A stretch of DNA of 32,000 bases from Candidatus Mediterraneibacter norwichensis. Lineage in GTDB: Bacteria; Bacillota; Clostridia; Lachnospirales; Lachnospiraceae. The stretch is taken from NCBI GenBank assembly GCA_019112765.1, contig DXIU01000112.1, positions 1 to 32,000 on the forward strand, in the 5' to 3' direction. Made by a program: the position numbers and the translations under genes. The first letter of the stretch is position 1, and the number at the start of each line of letters is the position of its first letter. This document shows, piece after piece, positions 26,421 through 32,000 of the stretch. Below the pieces are notes generated by a model. The model worked only from the letters and a program-made list of their open reading frames with translations. It was not told the origin of the DNA and searched no databases.

Positions 26421-26581
26421 ACAATCACCTTTCCCCTCTGCTTTACATATAATATATCATAAGTAATCCAGCATCTCTGCAAAACATCCGTTGATGCGGC
26501 ATCTCACAGAACCGTATCACTGATTATTATACACTAACTTTTGCCAAATGTGATGCTGTTTATTCAAAAAGAGGGATTTCA

Positions 26582-27397
26582 ATGAGTATACAAGGACTTG
26601 ACGTCAGCGAATTTCAGGGCGAAGTGGACTGGGAACGGGTAAAAGCAGCCGGTTTTCAGTTCGCCATGCTCCGCGCCGGATACGGCGCCGGCACAGAAGA
26701 CCGCCGTTTCCGGCGCAACGCCTCCGAATGCGGCCGGATCGGGCTTCCTTTCGGCGTGTACTGGTTCTGCTATGCCGCGACTCCCGCCGAAGCAGCCGCA
26801 GAGGCCGACAGCTGCATCAGAACCGTTTCCTCCTTCCGGCTGGAATATCCGGTATGCTATGATATCGAAGAGGCTTCCGCCGATTATGTCCGGAAGCAGG
26901 GGGCTCCATTTAACGCTTCGCTGGCCCGGAAGCTGGTCCGGAGCTTCTGCAGCCGCGTGGAAGAGAAAGGATACTTTTCCATGTTTTACAGCAGCCGCAA
27001 CTTTATAGACACCTACCTGGGAAATGATCTCCGGAAGCGCTATGCACTCTGGTACGCCCGATACAGTGAACGTTTCGATGGCACCGGCTGCGGCATATGG
27101 CAGTACACCAGCCAGGGCAGTGTACCCGGAATCAGAGGGGATGTTGACCTGGACCGGGGATTTACGGATTACCCTTCCATAATCAGAAATGCCGGGCTGA
27201 ATCATCTCTCCGGAAGGCCTTCCCGGCCGGAACCGGACTATGTTACCTATGTCCTCCGCCCGGGAGATACCCTGAGTGAAATTGCCGCCAGATTCGGAAC
27301 AACTGTATCCGAGCTTGCCGGGCTGAACCACATTTCCAATCCGGACCAGATCTATGCCGGGGATACCATTCGTATTCCGGAAAAAGACGCGACTTAA
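26582..27397 (+). CDS. GH25 muramidase (lysozyme) with C-terminal LysM domain
   Basis: The N-terminus GLDVSEFQGEVDWERVKAAGFQFAMLRAGYG is a typical GH25 start. The C-terminal LysM domain reads YVLRPGDTLSEIAARFGTTVSELAGLNHISNPDQIYAGDTIRIP. No signal peptide is visible. Confidence 0.88.
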   Translation: MSIQGLDVSEFQGEVDWERVKAAGFQFAMLRAGYGAGTEDRRFRRNASECGRIGLPFGVYWFCYAATPAEAAAEADSCIRTVSSFRLEYPVCYDIEEASADYVRKQGAPFNASLARKLVRSFCSRVEEKGYFSMFYSSRNFIDTYLGNDLRKRYALWYARYSERFDGTGCGIWQYTSQGSVPGIRGDVDLDRGFTDYPSIIRNAGLNHLSGRPSRPEPDYVTYVLRPGDTLSEIAARFGTTVSELAGLNHISNPDQIYAGDTIRIPEKDAT

Positions 27398-27420
27398 GAA
27401 AATCATAATTTTTTTTCGAT

Positions 27421-27620
27421 TTCTTTTAGAGTTTAATCATATTTTTGACACATTTGGTTATTATACTTAGAGCCAGATAGTTGATAAACAACTATCTCCC
27501 CCCTCATAAAGTAATGGCATCCCGGGGGACCGGGATGTCGCACTTTACTCTCATTCCTTTAATAACTATAAAAACAACGGAAACCCGTCAGTCGAGAGGC
27601 TGACGGGTTTTCGCTGTCTC
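27421..27620 (+). ncRNA. Copy 1 of a tandemly duplicated ~200-nt element, a candidate structured RNA with its own terminator (class unknown)
   Basis: Copies 1 and 2 share colinear sequence at a 334-nt offset. Blocks at 27474-27512 (39 nt) and 27539-27560 (22 nt) are identical in both copies. Between them copy 1 has the hairpin catcccgg-ggga-ccgggatg. Hairpin P1 is gatagttg-ataa-caactatc (27476-27495). The terminator stem pairs 27574-27591 with 27600-27617. The strand call is tentative because the terminator looks bidirectional. Confidence 0.5.
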
Positions 27621-27754: not shown

Positions 27755-27950
27755 TTCTTTTATAGTTCACTCATATTTTTGTCACATTTTCCCTTTATAC
27801 TATGTATCAGATAGTTGATAAACAACTATCTCCCCCCTCATAAAGTTCAGACGCTGCAGGGCGTCGCACTTTACTCTCATTCCTTTTTAGATAACCAATA
27901 AAACAACGAAAGCCCGTCAGTGAAAGCTGGCGGGCTTTCGTTGTTTCTCT
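27755..27950 (+). ncRNA. Copy 2 of the tandemly duplicated candidate structured RNA element
   Basis: The identical blocks lie at 27808-27846 and 27865-27886. The central hairpin is replaced by an unrelated one, gacgc-tgcagg-gcgtc. The terminator stem aacaacgaaagcccg (27902-27916) pairs with cgggctttcgttgtt (27931-27945) and carries compensated differences relative to copy 1. Confidence 0.5.
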
Positions 27951-28011: not shown

Positions 28012-28032
28012 ACAGGCTGGAGGATTTTTGAC

Positions 28033-30918
28033 ATGAACAATTTTACGGTTTTAAACTATCAGGGCAGTAAAAATAATCTGCGGGATTTTATATATAAAAA
28101 TCTGAAACCATATATTCAGGAAGGAAAAGCCGTCTTTGATATCTTTTCCGGTTCCGCGTCTGTCAGCAGTATGTTCGGGCAGGAATACCTGGTATATGCC
28201 AATGACGCGGAGGCATACGCGTCTATTATCGCCGATGCTTTACTGAATCCGGCAGACATCCCCTCTCCTTCCGCTTTTCTGGAACAGATTGAAGCGGATT
28301 ATGCTGCCATAAAGCAGGCCCTTTGTATCCCTGTTCTTGATTTTATAAATCGGGAAAAGACTGCGCTGAAAGAAAACAATTACCGTGAGCTGAGCGCTGT
28401 TTATGATTCCTATCCTACCGTGTGGAATCAGAAATACTCAGATATTATTCAGAAAGAACTGACTGTTGAAAATATAAGGGCGGCAGATAACTACTATCTT
28501 TTCACCACGTATTACGCATCCAACTACTACGGGATCGGACAGGCACTGGAAATTGACTGTATCATCAAACTGATACACACACGCTTTCCTTCCTGCAGAA
28601 ACGCCCTTCTTATGTGCCTGTTTTATGCCATGAAGGAAACGGTTTTCTCCAAGGACGGACATATGGCGCAGCCCCTGAATCCGGAAAAAAATCAGCGCCG
28701 GCTGTTTCTGCAGCGCAGCAAATACGTATATGAGCTTTTTATAAGAAAGCTTCGGGAATATCTTGCCCTCCCGCTTCCGGAGTACTCCGGAAAGAACCGG
28801 GTCTTTAATAAAAATTTCGAAGAACTCCTGACCATGAATATTTTTTCAGATGTGGGACTTGTATATGCGGATCCGCCTTACACGGATATGCAGTATTCGA
28901 GATATTATCATCTTCTCAATGTTGCGGTCAGATATGAATATCCGGATCTGACCCGCTCCAGAAACGGATATACAAAGGGGCTGTATACCGAAGGCCGCTA
29001 TCAGTCAAAACTGAGCCAGCGCAGTTCTGCCGGAAAATCTCTGGAACGTTTAATCTCCTTCTGCGCCGGCGCCGGGGTCAATCTGGCGTTAAGCTACGCC
29101 TATCCCCAGGACAGAAAGAAACAGGCGACAGACCGCTATACCATTTCCATTGACGAATTAATCCGGCTGGCCCGGAAACATTTTTCACCGGAACGGGTTA
29201 CAGTAGCCGCCCAGTCATACAGCCATGCGAACCACCGCAACAGCACCCAGAAAAAGGTTGTGGAATATCTGATTCTCTGTGGAGATAAAACCGGAAAAGA
29301 GCTGAATTATGATACGCTGAAAAAGCAGATCGCCAATGTTGTCCCCAGCAAGAATAATGCCATGTATAATTCTCATATGTACTGGTCTCAGAAAGCCTAC
29401 AATATATGCGATATCCTGATTCAGACATTATCAGACAGGGGCGGGGTTGTGTTTGATCCTTTCTTAGGCTCAGGCGTTACAGCACTGGAAGCCATCCGTG
29501 ACGATACAGGTAGAAAAGCTGTGGGCTGTGATATTAACGACATGCCCGTCTTTATTTCCAGAACGCTGCTGTCTGTAAACAGCAGCGGAAATATCCGGGA
29601 AATTCTGGACGATTTTCTGGAAAAGCTGACGCCTTTGACAAGGTATTATCGGACAACCTGTCCGGTCTGTCACAAAACAGGAACCATATCCAAAGTTCTG
29701 TTTGATAAGCCGGACCGGCAGAAAAATGTATTTAAAATCAAGACAGTCTATTATTCCTGTCCGTGTACAAAAAAAGGCGTGAAGGAGCCGGACGAAGAAG
29801 ACCGCCGCCTTATGCAGACAGTCCCTGTCCTGGAAAATATAACGGATACCGCTTTACTGGCGAATTCAAAAATCGCGGTCAGTGAAAATGATGATATCAG
29901 AAACATTTTTACCGGAAGGAATCTGGCGGTACTTGATGAAATCCTGACAATCATCCGCGGGTACGAAGACCGTTATCAGAATATATTAAAATACATCCTG
30001 ATGTCCGTGCTTCACCTGTGCAAGATAACAGACAGACATTCCAATTCACAGTGGCCTCTGTGGATTCCGAAGACGGACTGTGTTGAAAAGAATATTATTG
30101 AAATCTTATCAAAAAAAGTTCATAAATTTAACGATGTAATTGCGTTTATGAAAGAGAACTATTCTCATGCCCGGATTGTCAGTTCCTACGATGAACTGCA
30201 GCCCGGCAGCTGTCTTCTGCTGCAGAAAGGCTGCCAGAACATTACCGGAGATGACATTCCCGACGGCGGAGCCGACCTGATCATTACGGATCCCCCGTAT
30301 CTTGAACAGGTCCTGTACTCGGAATATATGCAGTTATACAAACCTTTCCTGGGGTTCGGCTACAATCTGGCGGATGAAATCGTAGTCTCTTCCGCGCCTT
30401 CCAGAGACAAGAACAGGGAGGACTATTTCCGGCTGCTGGACCAGGCCTTTGACATGTGTTCACGAAAACTGAAGCTCCACCGGCATATGTGTCTGTATTT
30501 TCACGACTGCAGCCTGGACGTCTGGAACCGTCTCATCACCATTCTGGAAAGCAGGGGGTTCCGGTTTATCACACAGATTCATATCCGGAAAACTGTTACG
30601 CTGAAAAATATTATAAGCCCGAAAAAATCGCTCAACGGCGACTCCATACTTATTTTCTCAAAGGAGGACGCCCCTGTCGTTCATCACACGGAGACGGAAG
30701 ATATTGCTGAAATTGAGACAGCTATTATCCGGCAGAGCAGAGCTATGATCCGGGCAGACGGCCCCCAGTCCACCCCCGAGCTCTATGACAACGGGCTTAT
30801 GGAACTTCTGATTCAGAACGGCTGGCTGGCCGGACTTTCTCAGAAATACTCTTCCCTGGTCGATATTTTTGAAAAGCATCTGACCTGGGATTCTCAGACC
30901 GGAAAATGGATGATCTAG
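28033..30918 (+). CDS. Fused two-module DNA methyltransferase: N-terminal Dam-like (D12-class) N6-adenine module plus a permuted N4/N6 (DPPY) module containing a Cys4 zinc ribbon
   Basis: Module 1 has NYQGSK (28054-28071), FDIFSGSAS (28135-28161) and ADPPY (28870-28881), the same motif order as Dam (KWAGGK...EPFVGAGS...DPPY). Module 2 has SQK...VFDPFLGSGVT (29452-29475), CPVC...CPC (29659-29766) and IITDPPY (30289-30300), followed by a motif V-VIII-like segment. I moved the start to ATG 28033, which follows the SD sequence. Confidence 0.88.
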   Translation: MNNFTVLNYQGSKNNLRDFIYKNLKPYIQEGKAVFDIFSGSASVSSMFGQEYLVYANDAEAYASIIADALLNPADIPSPSAFLEQIEADYAAIKQALCIPVLDFINREKTALKENNYRELSAVYDSYPTVWNQKYSDIIQKELTVENIRAADNYYLFTTYYASNYYGIGQALEIDCIIKLIHTRFPSCRNALLMCLFYAMKETVFSKDGHMAQPLNPEKNQRRLFLQRSKYVYELFIRKLREYLALPLPEYSGKNRVFNKNFEELLTMNIFSDVGLVYADPPYTDMQYSRYYHLLNVAVRYEYPDLTRSRNGYTKGLYTEGRYQSKLSQRSSAGKSLERLISFCAGAGVNLALSYAYPQDRKKQATDRYTISIDELIRLARKHFSPERVTVAAQSYSHANHRNSTQKKVVEYLILCGDKTGKELNYDTLKKQIANVVPSKNNAMYNSHMYWSQKAYNICDILIQTLSDRGGVVFDPFLGSGVTALEAIRDDTGRKAVGCDINDMPVFISRTLLSVNSSGNIREILDDFLEKLTPLTRYYRTTCPVCHKTGTISKVLFDKPDRQKNVFKIKTVYYSCPCTKKGVKEPDEEDRRLMQTVPVLENITDTALLANSKIAVSENDDIRNIFTGRNLAVLDEILTIIRGYEDRYQNILKYILMSVLHLCKITDRHSNSQWPLWIPKTDCVEKNIIEILSKKVHKFNDVIAFMKENYSHARIVSSYDELQPGSCLLLQKGCQNITGDDIPDGGADLIITDPPYLEQVLYSEYMQLYKPFLGFGYNLADEIVVSSAPSRDKNREDYFRLLDQAFDMCSRKLKLHRHMCLYFHDCSLDVWNRLITILESRGFRFITQIHIRKTVTLKNIISPKKSLNGDSILIFSKEDAPVVHHTETEDIAEIETAIIRQSRAMIRADGPQSTPELYDNGLMELLIQNGWLAGLSQKYSSLVDIFEKHLTWDSQTGKWMI

Positions 30919-30923
30919 AGCAG

Positions 30924-30957
30924 GAAAAGGGGGTTCTCCGAAGAGAGCCCTCTTTTC
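30924..30957. terminator. Bidirectional terminator between the convergent methyltransferase and nuclease genes
   Basis: A 15-bp stem gaaaagggggttctc pairs with gagagccctcttttc, including two G-U pairs, around a cgaa loop. A/T runs flank both sides. The 3' arm overlaps the stop codon of the nuclease ORF. Confidence 0.65.
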
Positions 30958-31502
30958 TATGCATTCCGGCTGCCGTTATAATACTGCCCCGGAAAATACT
31001 TATCCAGCTTTTTCATCAGCTCTGTTCCGTCTGTTGTTCCCACTTCCAGGTCCCTGGCAACTTTTTCGCCGTCCTTTGTATAACCGGAGGTAGTGATACA
31101 GACGGCCGCGTCAAATCCTCTTCTTTCACGCTCCGCGTACAGCCGCTGAACAGGTTCTGAACCCACGTTGTGCACCCAGCGTTTGCACTGGAAAAGCTCA
31201 CGGCATATTCTGCCGTTTTCCTGCCTGGAGGCCATAATATCAACGCCCAGATCTCCGGCGCCTCCGATTCTCACCACATTTTCATATCCCTCTGCCTTCA
31301 GCAGCCGGACAATCAGCTCTTCAAATTCCGTTCCGGTCAGCGTGGAAATATCAACAGCGTCCTCATTCGGTTTTGCAGTGTCCTTCCTCTCCACATAATA
31401 TTTATCTTCTATTACGCAGTAGTTTAAAATCAGGCGCTCAATTTCACTCTGATGGCTTCCTCTTCCAGAATCTGAATGATTGTTTTCGGATTTCCGTCGC
31501 AC
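30957..31502 (-). CDS. Mrr_cat-type (PD-(D/E)xK) restriction endonuclease domain protein; start uncertain
   Basis: GTEFEELIVRLLKAEGYENV...GGAGDLGVDI...LFQCKRW...CITTSGYT matches the Mrr catalytic-domain pattern (D...D...QCK). The track start, GTG 31502, has no SD sequence and overlaps the upstream ORF by 73 nt. The only other candidate start is GTG 31394. Confidence 0.75.
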   Translation of the reverse strand: MRRKSENNHSDSGRGSHQSEIERLILNYCVIEDKYYVERKDTAKPNEDAVDISTLTGTEFEELIVRLLKAEGYENVVRIGGAGDLGVDIMASRQENGRICRELFQCKRWVHNVGSEPVQRLYAERERRGFDAAVCITTSGYTKDGEKVARDLEVGTTDGTELMKKLDKYFPGQYYNGSRNA

Positions 31503-32000
31503 AGGGCGTTTACCAGTTCAAAACAGATATCTTCCAGAACAAATTTCCCTTTCCTCTCCAGAATCCGGCGGATAAATACCGGCATCAGATCATAAATCTT
31601 CGTGTACAGGGCGTCCGAGTCTTCAATATCCAGATAGAGCCGGTTGTCACTGATCTGAATCACTCCTGCGTCCACACTGAAATATTCCAGAAGCAGACGT
31701 CTGATTTTTTCATTATCACTCTCTGAAGCAAGATACTGATATCTGATTCTCAGATCGTCACGCGCCAGCTTTACCGCTCCCGAAAGGGTTACGCAGTCTT
31801 TTGCGTCAAGCAGATGAAAGTATATTTTCCTGACCAGAAGGAACTCATAATTGTCATTTCCTATGTACCAGTATCTGTCCTTCTCATCCAGTTTATAAAA
31901 TGCCGCGATTATTTCATTCATAAATGTATTTGTAAAAGCGGCCTGCTTCCGTATCGTAGGGTCCGTTTTGACAAGATCCGTCTGGTATGCGTACTCAAAT
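31430..32000 (-). CDS. Protein of unknown function, 3' part only
   Basis: The frame stays open upstream of ATG 31921 all the way to position 32000, reading FEYAYQTDLVKTDPTIRKQAAFTNTF before MNEII. ATG 31921 has no SD sequence, so the gene probably starts beyond the window. I recognise no motifs. Confidence 0.6.
   Translation of the reverse strand, partial: FEYAYQTDLVKTDPTIRKQAAFTNTFMNEIIAAFYKLDEKDRYWYIGNDNYEFLLVRKIYFHLLDAKDCVTLSGAVKLARDDLRIRYQYLASESDNEKIRRLLLEYFSVDAGVIQISDNRLYLDIEDSDALYTKIYDLMPVFIRRILERKGKFVLEDICFELVNALCDGNPKTIIQILEEEAIRVKLSA

Follow-up and report, generated by a model that had tools for sequence, protein, structure and literature searches.

A tandem DNA methyltransferase of Lachnospiraceae is predicted to join a Dam-like module to a second class-alpha module with a nested recognition domain

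How many active sites does a DNA methyltransferase have when it carries two catalytic loops, and when the motifs of its second half seem to run in the reverse of the expected order? This question is raised by a gene on contig DXIU01000112.1 (assembly GCA_019112765.1, 2.6 Mb) of Candidatus Mediterraneibacter norwichensis, a member of the Lachnospiraceae; the window analyzed here is the 32,000-nt stretch comprising positions 1-32000 of that contig. The gene, which we call gene A, occupies 28033-30918 on the plus strand and encodes a 961-aa tandem DNA methyltransferase. A preliminary description made from the letters alone had proposed an unusual architecture, in which a Dam-like module is fused to a circularly permuted N4/N6 module split by a zinc ribbon, and had left the number of active sites ambiguous. 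As modelled, gene A is instead two complete, independent methyltransferase domains with two active sites, both of ordinary class-alpha order, and we argue below that it is probably the modification enzyme of a two-gene restriction-modification system.

Gene A is a single unbroken frame that runs from an ATG at 28033, with a ribosome-binding site read from the sequence 9 nt ahead of it (GGAGG, 28019-28023, plus strand), to a stop codon at 30916-30918. Homologues spanning 100% of its length fall into more than 400 protein clusters of 958-992 aa, one of which, at 99% identity, holds 294 members; their source names are DNA methyltransferases in Lachnospiraceae, Clostridium, Enterococcus, Pseudobacteroides and others. 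All motifs that the preliminary description had listed were found where it had placed them. Module 1 (residues 1-418; 28033-29286, plus strand) contains NYQGSK at residues 8-13 (with YQGSK at 9-13), DIFSGSAS at 36-43 (DIFSGS at 36-41), and a first DPPY, motif IV of this module and hereafter DPPY-1, at 280-283 (28870-28881, plus strand). Module 2 (residues 437-880; 29341-30672, plus strand) contains WSQK at 451-454 (SQK at 452-454), its motif I, DPFLGSG, at 475-481 (29455-29475, plus strand; hereafter motif I-2), GCDIN at 498-502, CPVC at 543-546, CPC at 576-578, and a second DPPY, its motif IV and hereafter DPPY-2, at 753-756 (30289-30300, plus strand). In an alignment of 34 full-length homologues reaching down to 27% identity, both copies of motif I and both DPPY loops are kept in every member. 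Invariant residues include D36, F38 and G40 in the first S-adenosylmethionine (SAM) motif, D475, P476, G479, S480 and G481 in the second, and all four positions of each catalytic loop (D280, P281, P282 and Y283; D753, P754, P755 and Y756).

The independence of the two modules can be seen in both the predicted structure and the natural variants of the gene. An AlphaFold model built on the 34-homologue alignment has a mean predicted local distance difference test score (pLDDT) of 88.5 and a predicted template modelling score (pTM) of 0.61, and a pTM of this size is, for such a model, the value expected of two domains on a flexible link. Each module is modelled as a complete seven-stranded Rossmann-type fold, in agreement with collinear structural alignments, and the structural matches fall into two non-overlapping sets: Dam enzymes on residues 1-416/418 and canonical Rossmann methyltransferases on residues 437-878. 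The structure prediction and fold searches (Foldseek, VIA-align), of the kind that the preliminary description had suggested, return two methyltransferase folds. Model confidence dips at residues 402-404 and across 401-430, close to the linker at residues 419-436 (29287-29340, plus strand), which is also the point of fission and fusion. When residues 401-961 were used to search 1.84 billion representatives, 2247 relatives were recovered, 139 of them at E<=1e-30, and many of the relatives consist of a freestanding module 2, about 540 aa long and starting near gene A residue 425 (for example P0125, 50% identity), with the same split pattern of matches to the Pfam model PF01555 and the same motif order. 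In another genome, G103, the modules are separate genes, M1 (419 aa, 44% identical) and M2 (535 aa, 55% identical), broken at the linker and overlapping at stop and start as ATGA, an arrangement of translational coupling, and they adjoin an intact 801-aa version of the partner gene described below. Gene A is therefore one polypeptide made of two complete domains that can also exist apart, and the two closed folds, the standalone form of module 2 and the split M1/M2 form together put the number of active sites at two.

The ambiguity in the preliminary description came from a second possible pairing, in which DPPY-1 would work with motif I-2 in a single beta-class site spanning both halves. The distance between these elements is 195 aa, matching the estimate of about 195 aa given there, a spacing that is usual among beta-class enzymes; motif I-2 is also matched by PF01555 and by beta-class structures. 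However, module 2 on its own begins about 50 aa before motif I-2, the natural gene split lies between DPPY-1 and motif I-2, and in the model each Rossmann fold closes inside its own half. The standalone proteins and the split genes of G103 therefore exclude the pairing, to which we leave only a very slight chance, and the number of active sites is no longer in doubt on this account. Slighter still, to the point of being negligible, is the chance that the long reading frame is an artefact, produced either by a frameshift or by the mis-joining of two neighbouring genes during assembly. Two-gene split versions do occur in other genomes, and a neighbouring gene in this same assembly does have an indel, but a protein of 958-968 aa is found in hundreds of independent assemblies, including the 294-member cluster, and the frame is continuous across a conserved linker. 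With more than 400 clusters of about 960 aa, gene A is neither a frameshift product nor an assembly join, two outcomes that the preliminary description had named as ways in which its proposal could fail. Its proposal that a Dam-like module is fused to a second amino-methyltransferase module stands, with matches to both PF02086 and PF01555 above their gathering cut-offs and two closed domains in the model.

Module 1 is a Dam-like (D12, class alpha) methyltransferase domain by profile match, structural alignment and motifs, and probably an N6-adenine enzyme. The PF02086 match scores 62.6 bits against a cut-off of 22 (E 6e-17), and the YxGxK, FxGxG and DPPY motifs of the D12/Dam family are present, in the class-alpha order of motif I (36-41), a helical target-recognition domain (TRD; residues ~61-255) and DPPY (280-283). 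Using VIA-align, the AlphaFold model of module 1 aligns with T4 Dam at Z 15.1 over 230 of 249 residues and with E. coli Dam at Z 14.7 over 220 residues, the Dam matches covering residues 1-416/418. The best Foldseek matches of the gene A model are Dam, DpnM and T4 Dam, and beta-class enzymes match weakly. Kinship with Dam does not extend to the narrower dam equivalog TIGR00571, for which the score is 26.2 bits against a cut-off of 114.85 with the DPPY region alone matching; because this is so far below the cut-off, GATC specificity should not be assumed for module 1.

Module 2 is where the architecture had seemed unusual. Amino-methyltransferases are classed by motif order, class alpha having motif I, TRD and motif IV, and class beta having IV, TRD and I (PMC7544214). 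Module 2 is a complete Rossmann methyltransferase domain with the order X-I-II-[TRD]-III-IV-VIII and class-alpha topology: motif I lies at 475-481, the TRD at ~518-722 and DPPY at 753-756. In the model, a helix (456-466) leads into strand 1 (472-475) and motif I, followed by strand 2 (495-500) and a helix (503-517); after the insert come strand 3 (726-731), strand 4 (747-752) leading into DPPY, strand 5 (813-822), and strands 6 and 7 (843-850 and 871-877). The SAM motif had been placed about 280 aa ahead of its DPPY; we measure 278 aa from motif I-2 to DPPY-2, and over the wider family this distance stays at 261-291 aa. The PF01555 match (69.9 bits, cut-off 26.7, E 4e-19) falls in two separate stretches, and the C-terminal part of the profile (132-213) aligns to residues 412-503, upstream of DPPY-2. 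The same swap is seen in phmmer alignments with the beta-class structures 9c3u, 8urk and 1g60, whose residues 18-33 (DPPY) correspond to 741-756 and whose residues 187-240 (motif I) correspond to 452-507. The beta-class order, with motif IV N-terminal to motif I, is therefore not that of module 2, which, like Dam, is class alpha by motif order; its permuted look comes from the nearest Pfam model, PF01555, having been built on beta-class enzymes. The earlier claim of an unusual, circularly permuted architecture does not survive this comparison, as motif I-TRD-IV is class alpha by definition, is permuted with respect to PF01555 alone, and is a layout already published for PglXI.

Collinear relatives of module 2 are readily found. 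Trm11 is collinear with it over residues 437-878 (Z 17.8, rmsd (root-mean-square deviation) 2.7, 177 residues by VIA-align), and Trm11, Trm14 and TrmN all align in this way at Z 17.8-16.4 over about 175 residues. The reversed motif order explains why sequential structural aligners prefer Trm11, at Z 17.8, over the beta-class enzymes, for which the Foldseek TM score is ~0.25. The PADLOC model MTase_II PDLC03319 is collinear with gene A residues 448-896, and a second PADLOC Type II methyltransferase profile, PDLC03287 (646 positions), spans DPPY-1 to motif I-2 (E 4e-24); the Type II methyltransferase models that module 2 matches are REBASE-derived. After the core comes a C-terminal helical domain with a terminal beta-hairpin, assigned from the secondary structure of the model (residues 881-961; 30673-30915, plus strand), which could assist in DNA binding.

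Between strands 2 and 3 of module 2 sits an alpha+beta insert of ~205 aa (residues ~518-722; 29584-30198, plus strand), which agrees with the earlier suggestion that the stretch between motif I-2 and DPPY-2 is a TRD with a ribbon. Folded alone, this insert reaches a pLDDT of 92.1 and a pTM of 0.89, as a confident, compact and autonomous domain. It carries a four-cysteine ribbon, C543-x2-C546 ... C576-x-C578 (29659-29766, plus strand), modelled within a three-stranded sheet (strands 549-558 and 568-575), and the four-cysteine pattern is kept in 28 of 31 full-length homologues; the ribbon would stabilise the TRD and may take part in DNA reading. Compared alone with 48,161 PDB representatives, the nested TRD fold gave no convincing match, only generic helical ones (best Z 5.3), a result that does not establish a new fold.

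A published precedent for this layout is found in the BrxXI/PglXI and DUF1156 'BR' methyltransferases, which place a ~250-aa alpha+beta TRD, with a four-cysteine zinc finger on top of it, between core strands 2 and 3 (PMC12839542). Module 2 has both the alpha+beta insert at the same position and, with its cysteine pattern, a predicted zinc site within it, and the PADLOC PglXI profile matches gene A residues 580-844 at E 2e-23. The same profile matches standalone relatives of module 2 at E 3e-30 and relatives of ~810 aa at 2e-65. The C-terminal region is of a different kind, with ~80 residues (881-961) after the core, and the NCBIfam DUF1156 model scores 15 bits against a cut-off of 1000. Nor is the neighbourhood that of type 3 bacteriophage exclusion (BREX) or DUF499 loci; the neighbours are a methyltransferase-like/Mrr fusion, a zinc-ribbon protein, GH25 muramidases and hydrogenase genes. 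The ~810-aa relatives were considered as nuclease fusions (methyltransferase-like plus Mrr) and rejected, since P0170 does not match the Mrr part and the ~810-aa proteins match PglXI strongly. Other combinations of the module exist: the 870-aa protein P0148 joins an HTH_17 domain, a module-2-like nested-TRD methyltransferase (78-579) and a complete canonical beta-class PF01555 domain (611-838). Elsewhere in the source genome, a 705-aa open frame has a stretch (G000:C14:12447-12680) that weakly matches module 2 at motif I, and it is probably another DNA methyltransferase.

Convergent with gene A in the window is the gene of its presumptive partner, whose homologues are single 794-aa proteins. 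The 637-aa frame of this gene, whose 3' part lies at 31430-32000 on the minus strand and which extends to window-equivalent position 33343, comprises a methyltransferase-like module of 628 aa and 9 out-of-frame residues. This module is a paralogue of module 2 (25-27% identity), collinear with it including the ribbon region, and its motif IV reads TDFPY. A second frame of 181 aa, at 30957-31502 on the minus strand, encodes an Mrr_cat nuclease of the PD-(D/E)xK type (PF04471, E 3.5e-23) and overlaps the 637-aa frame by 73 nt. The nearest intact homologue is P0307, at 99% identity; the Mrr frame is 100% identical to residues 629-794 of that protein. Protein comparison with P0307, together with DNA alignment with the related locus L005 (relatives 88% and 99% identical), places a 1-nt deletion at 31457-31459 (minus strand), where one A has been lost from an A-run; the relative reads GGAAAGCC and this genome GGAAGCC. 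The Mrr frame is now out of frame and has neither a start codon nor a ribosome-binding site of its own. The deletion could reflect a true inactivation or a mistake in the assembly; as the frameshift uncouples the nuclease, gene A would be effectively an orphan methylase in this genome unless the latter is the case.

In most related loci the partner is intact. From 185,579 species genomes we recovered 80 related loci, and an uninterrupted, full-length partner with its Mrr_cat domain adjoins the methylase gene in 61 of these 80, down to 26% identity, whereas in the source genome it is frameshifted. The two genes are mostly convergent and are co-directional in a distant clade. Conservation across these loci shows that the partner family keeps its motif I as DPFxGSG and its motif IV as TD(F/P)PY, with F at the variable position in 39 sequences and P in 22, and that the catalytic residues of Mrr, GDxGVD...QxKR, show little or no variation; the 794-aa protein belongs to no NCBIfam family. 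The loci are mainly in Bacillota, with a few in Gilliamella, Aggregatibacter, Veillonella, Gastranaerophilales and Saccharibacteria. Of 400 genomes sampled within the same class, 5 have the system, and it is absent from G207, a genome of the same genus; this patchy distribution fits a mobile restriction-modification module. Three forms of the locus are seen: methylase with partner, methylase with partner and an additional open reading frame (ORF) of ~341 aa, and methylase with this ORF alone. The ~341-aa ORF is conserved, contains two internal D..EYK motifs, and is found at L042:10936-11958 (minus strand) and at 16 other loci (for example L035:13789-14724 and L046:10869-11855). Its motifs suggest a tandem PD-(D/E)xK nuclease. 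Searches of Pfam and of PDB sequences gave no match, and a query with this ORF did not find it in the source genome.

Taken together, we think it probable that gene A supplies the modification activity in a restriction-modification system of two genes, in which two class-alpha modules each serve one strand of an asymmetric site. A precedent is M.FokI, whose two domains each methylate adenine on one strand of GGATG/CATCC (PMC5974420), and class-alpha enzymes are known to act as monomers (PMC7544214). By analogy, gene A would be two self-contained amino-methyltransferase domains of class alpha fused head to tail, each with its own SAM site and DPPY catalytic loop, and each module would read and methylate one strand of an asymmetric target. 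This division of labour, with one strand per module, is probable on the M.FokI model. Both modules are most likely N6-adenine enzymes, as the DPPY loops, the kinship of module 1 with Dam and that of module 2 with PglXI all favour an adenine target. Methylation by gene A would then shield the chromosome from the 794-aa partner, in which a module-2-like recognition/methylation domain is joined to the C-terminal Mrr-type nuclease, and in the source genome the 1-nt deletion would uncouple that nuclease and leave gene A acting as an orphan methylase. We read the system as Type IIG/IIS-like.

Several points weigh against this proposal. A literature search found no methylome or biochemical data and no characterised member of the family. 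The partner nuclease is not uniform, with the 341-aa ORF standing beside or replacing the Mrr fusion in a subset of loci, which would in principle allow each of the two modules to serve a different nuclease; one strand may already be methylated by the methyltransferase-like domain of the partner itself; and motif I of module 1 reads FSGSA here, where the family majority has FSGSG. The lack of uniformity keeps some weight on a two-site, two-nuclease arrangement, in which each module would guard its own unrelated site and the fusion would be a matter of convenience. The three forms of the locus are what such an arrangement might produce, but neither module is lost, and their motifs stay invariant, regardless of which nuclease gene accompanies them; the split form has its coupled M1 and M2 beside a single partner gene, and the window's own island has the partner gene alone, so that we regard protection against two nucleases as unlikely. 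It is also conceivable, if less likely again, that one module is catalytically active and the other is a DNA-binding or SAM-sensing accessory. Degenerate methyltransferase domains are known to bind, as in MettL14 with its EPPL (PMC7544214), and the alanine in module 1 falls at the last glycine position of motif I. Yet both copies of motif I and both DPPY loops are invariant or nearly so in homologues as distant as 27% identity, and both modules are modelled as complete seven-stranded folds, and we therefore continue to favour two active modules acting on the two strands of one asymmetric site.

Three exact copies of the 36-nt core of a small-RNA-like repeat lie at 27476-27511, 27810-27845 and window-equivalent 36202-36237 (L004:9203-9238), and the methylase and restriction genes, the zinc-ribbon protein and a GH25 gene are found between copies 2 and 3. 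In G207 two copies of the repeat lie ~0.9 kb apart, and two flank queries found no island DNA there. The repeats around the module and the arrangement in G207 together place the restriction-modification module in a variable island bounded by repeats. Two GH25 muramidase paralogues (38% identity) lie at 26582-27397 (plus strand) and window-equivalent 34694-35614 (L004:7695-8615, plus strand), each just upstream of one repeat copy, one on either side of the island. A minus-strand ORF at 26579-27406 overlaps the first GH25 gene, has no Pfam match and is probably not a gene. A scan of the window with Rfam at the gathering threshold returned nothing.

What, then, does this locus add? A broader and more tentative idea, which may well prove too generous, is that gene A and its 794-aa partner represent an uncharacterised restriction-modification family, widespread in gut Bacillota, with three amino-methyltransferase modules and a nested-TRD module serving as the DNA reader of an Mrr nuclease. 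Those three modules would be one Dam-like domain and two paralogous nested-TRD/zinc-ribbon domains, one of them with TD(F/P)PY and wired to a C-terminal Mrr. If so, the recognition module of BREX type 3 would have been put to use in a Type IIG/IIS-like enzyme, and the fusions, fissions and nuclease swaps seen in nature could serve as a model of how such systems assemble. This would also link a little-studied BREX type-3 recognition module to ordinary Type II-like systems, which are far easier to handle biochemically. The architecture in itself is already known, being a tandem methyltransferase combined with a class-alpha domain that has a nested TRD, and gene A is one more member. For annotators, an apparent oddity is removed: split PF01555 matches in this order indicate a normal class-alpha methyltransferase with a nested TRD. 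The clean domain boundaries, with D280 and D753 as single-residue targets, should make it easier to assign the motifs of methylomes from Lachnospiraceae and other Bacillota of the gut, where the system is common and would block transformation.

How gene A compares with known systems depends on which part is considered. Module 1 shares with Dam, T4 Dam and DpnM the YxGxK, FxGxG and DPPY motifs and the same alpha order, but its TRD of ~195 aa is larger than that of T4 Dam, which is ~80 aa. Module 2 has its strongest sequence similarity, in the motif X/I/II block and the strand before DPPY, with the beta-class N6/N4 methyltransferases of PF01555 (M.RsrI, M.MboIIA, CcrM), yet those run IV-TRD-I whereas module 2 runs I-TRD-IV. 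In its Rossmann core, its TRD nested between strands 2 and 3 and its four-cysteine ribbon, module 2 is closest in layout to BrxXI/PglXI of BREX type 3; gene A differs in having no BREX genes nearby, no DUF1156 N-terminal domain, a Dam-like module fused on, and a single helical C-terminal domain of ~80 aa in place of their three helix-turn-helix-like C-terminal domains (280-300 aa). Like M.FokI, gene A is one polypeptide with two complete amino-methyltransferase domains, although its second domain is not Dam-like but belongs to the nested-TRD, zinc-ribbon family, and its partner nuclease is a methyltransferase-like/Mrr fusion and not of the FokI type; at 961 aa it is also ~50% longer than M.FokI, which has 647 aa. 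The two-gene system as a whole resembles Type IIG/IIC enzymes accompanied by a separate methylase, such as Eco57I, in which a polypeptide combining methyltransferase-type and PD-(D/E)xK nuclease domains is encoded beside a separate methylase gene. Classical examples have an N-terminal nuclease and a gamma-class domain, whereas the partner of gene A carries its Mrr_cat domain at the C-terminus and a methyltransferase-like domain of the nested-TRD alpha type with TD(F/P)PY.

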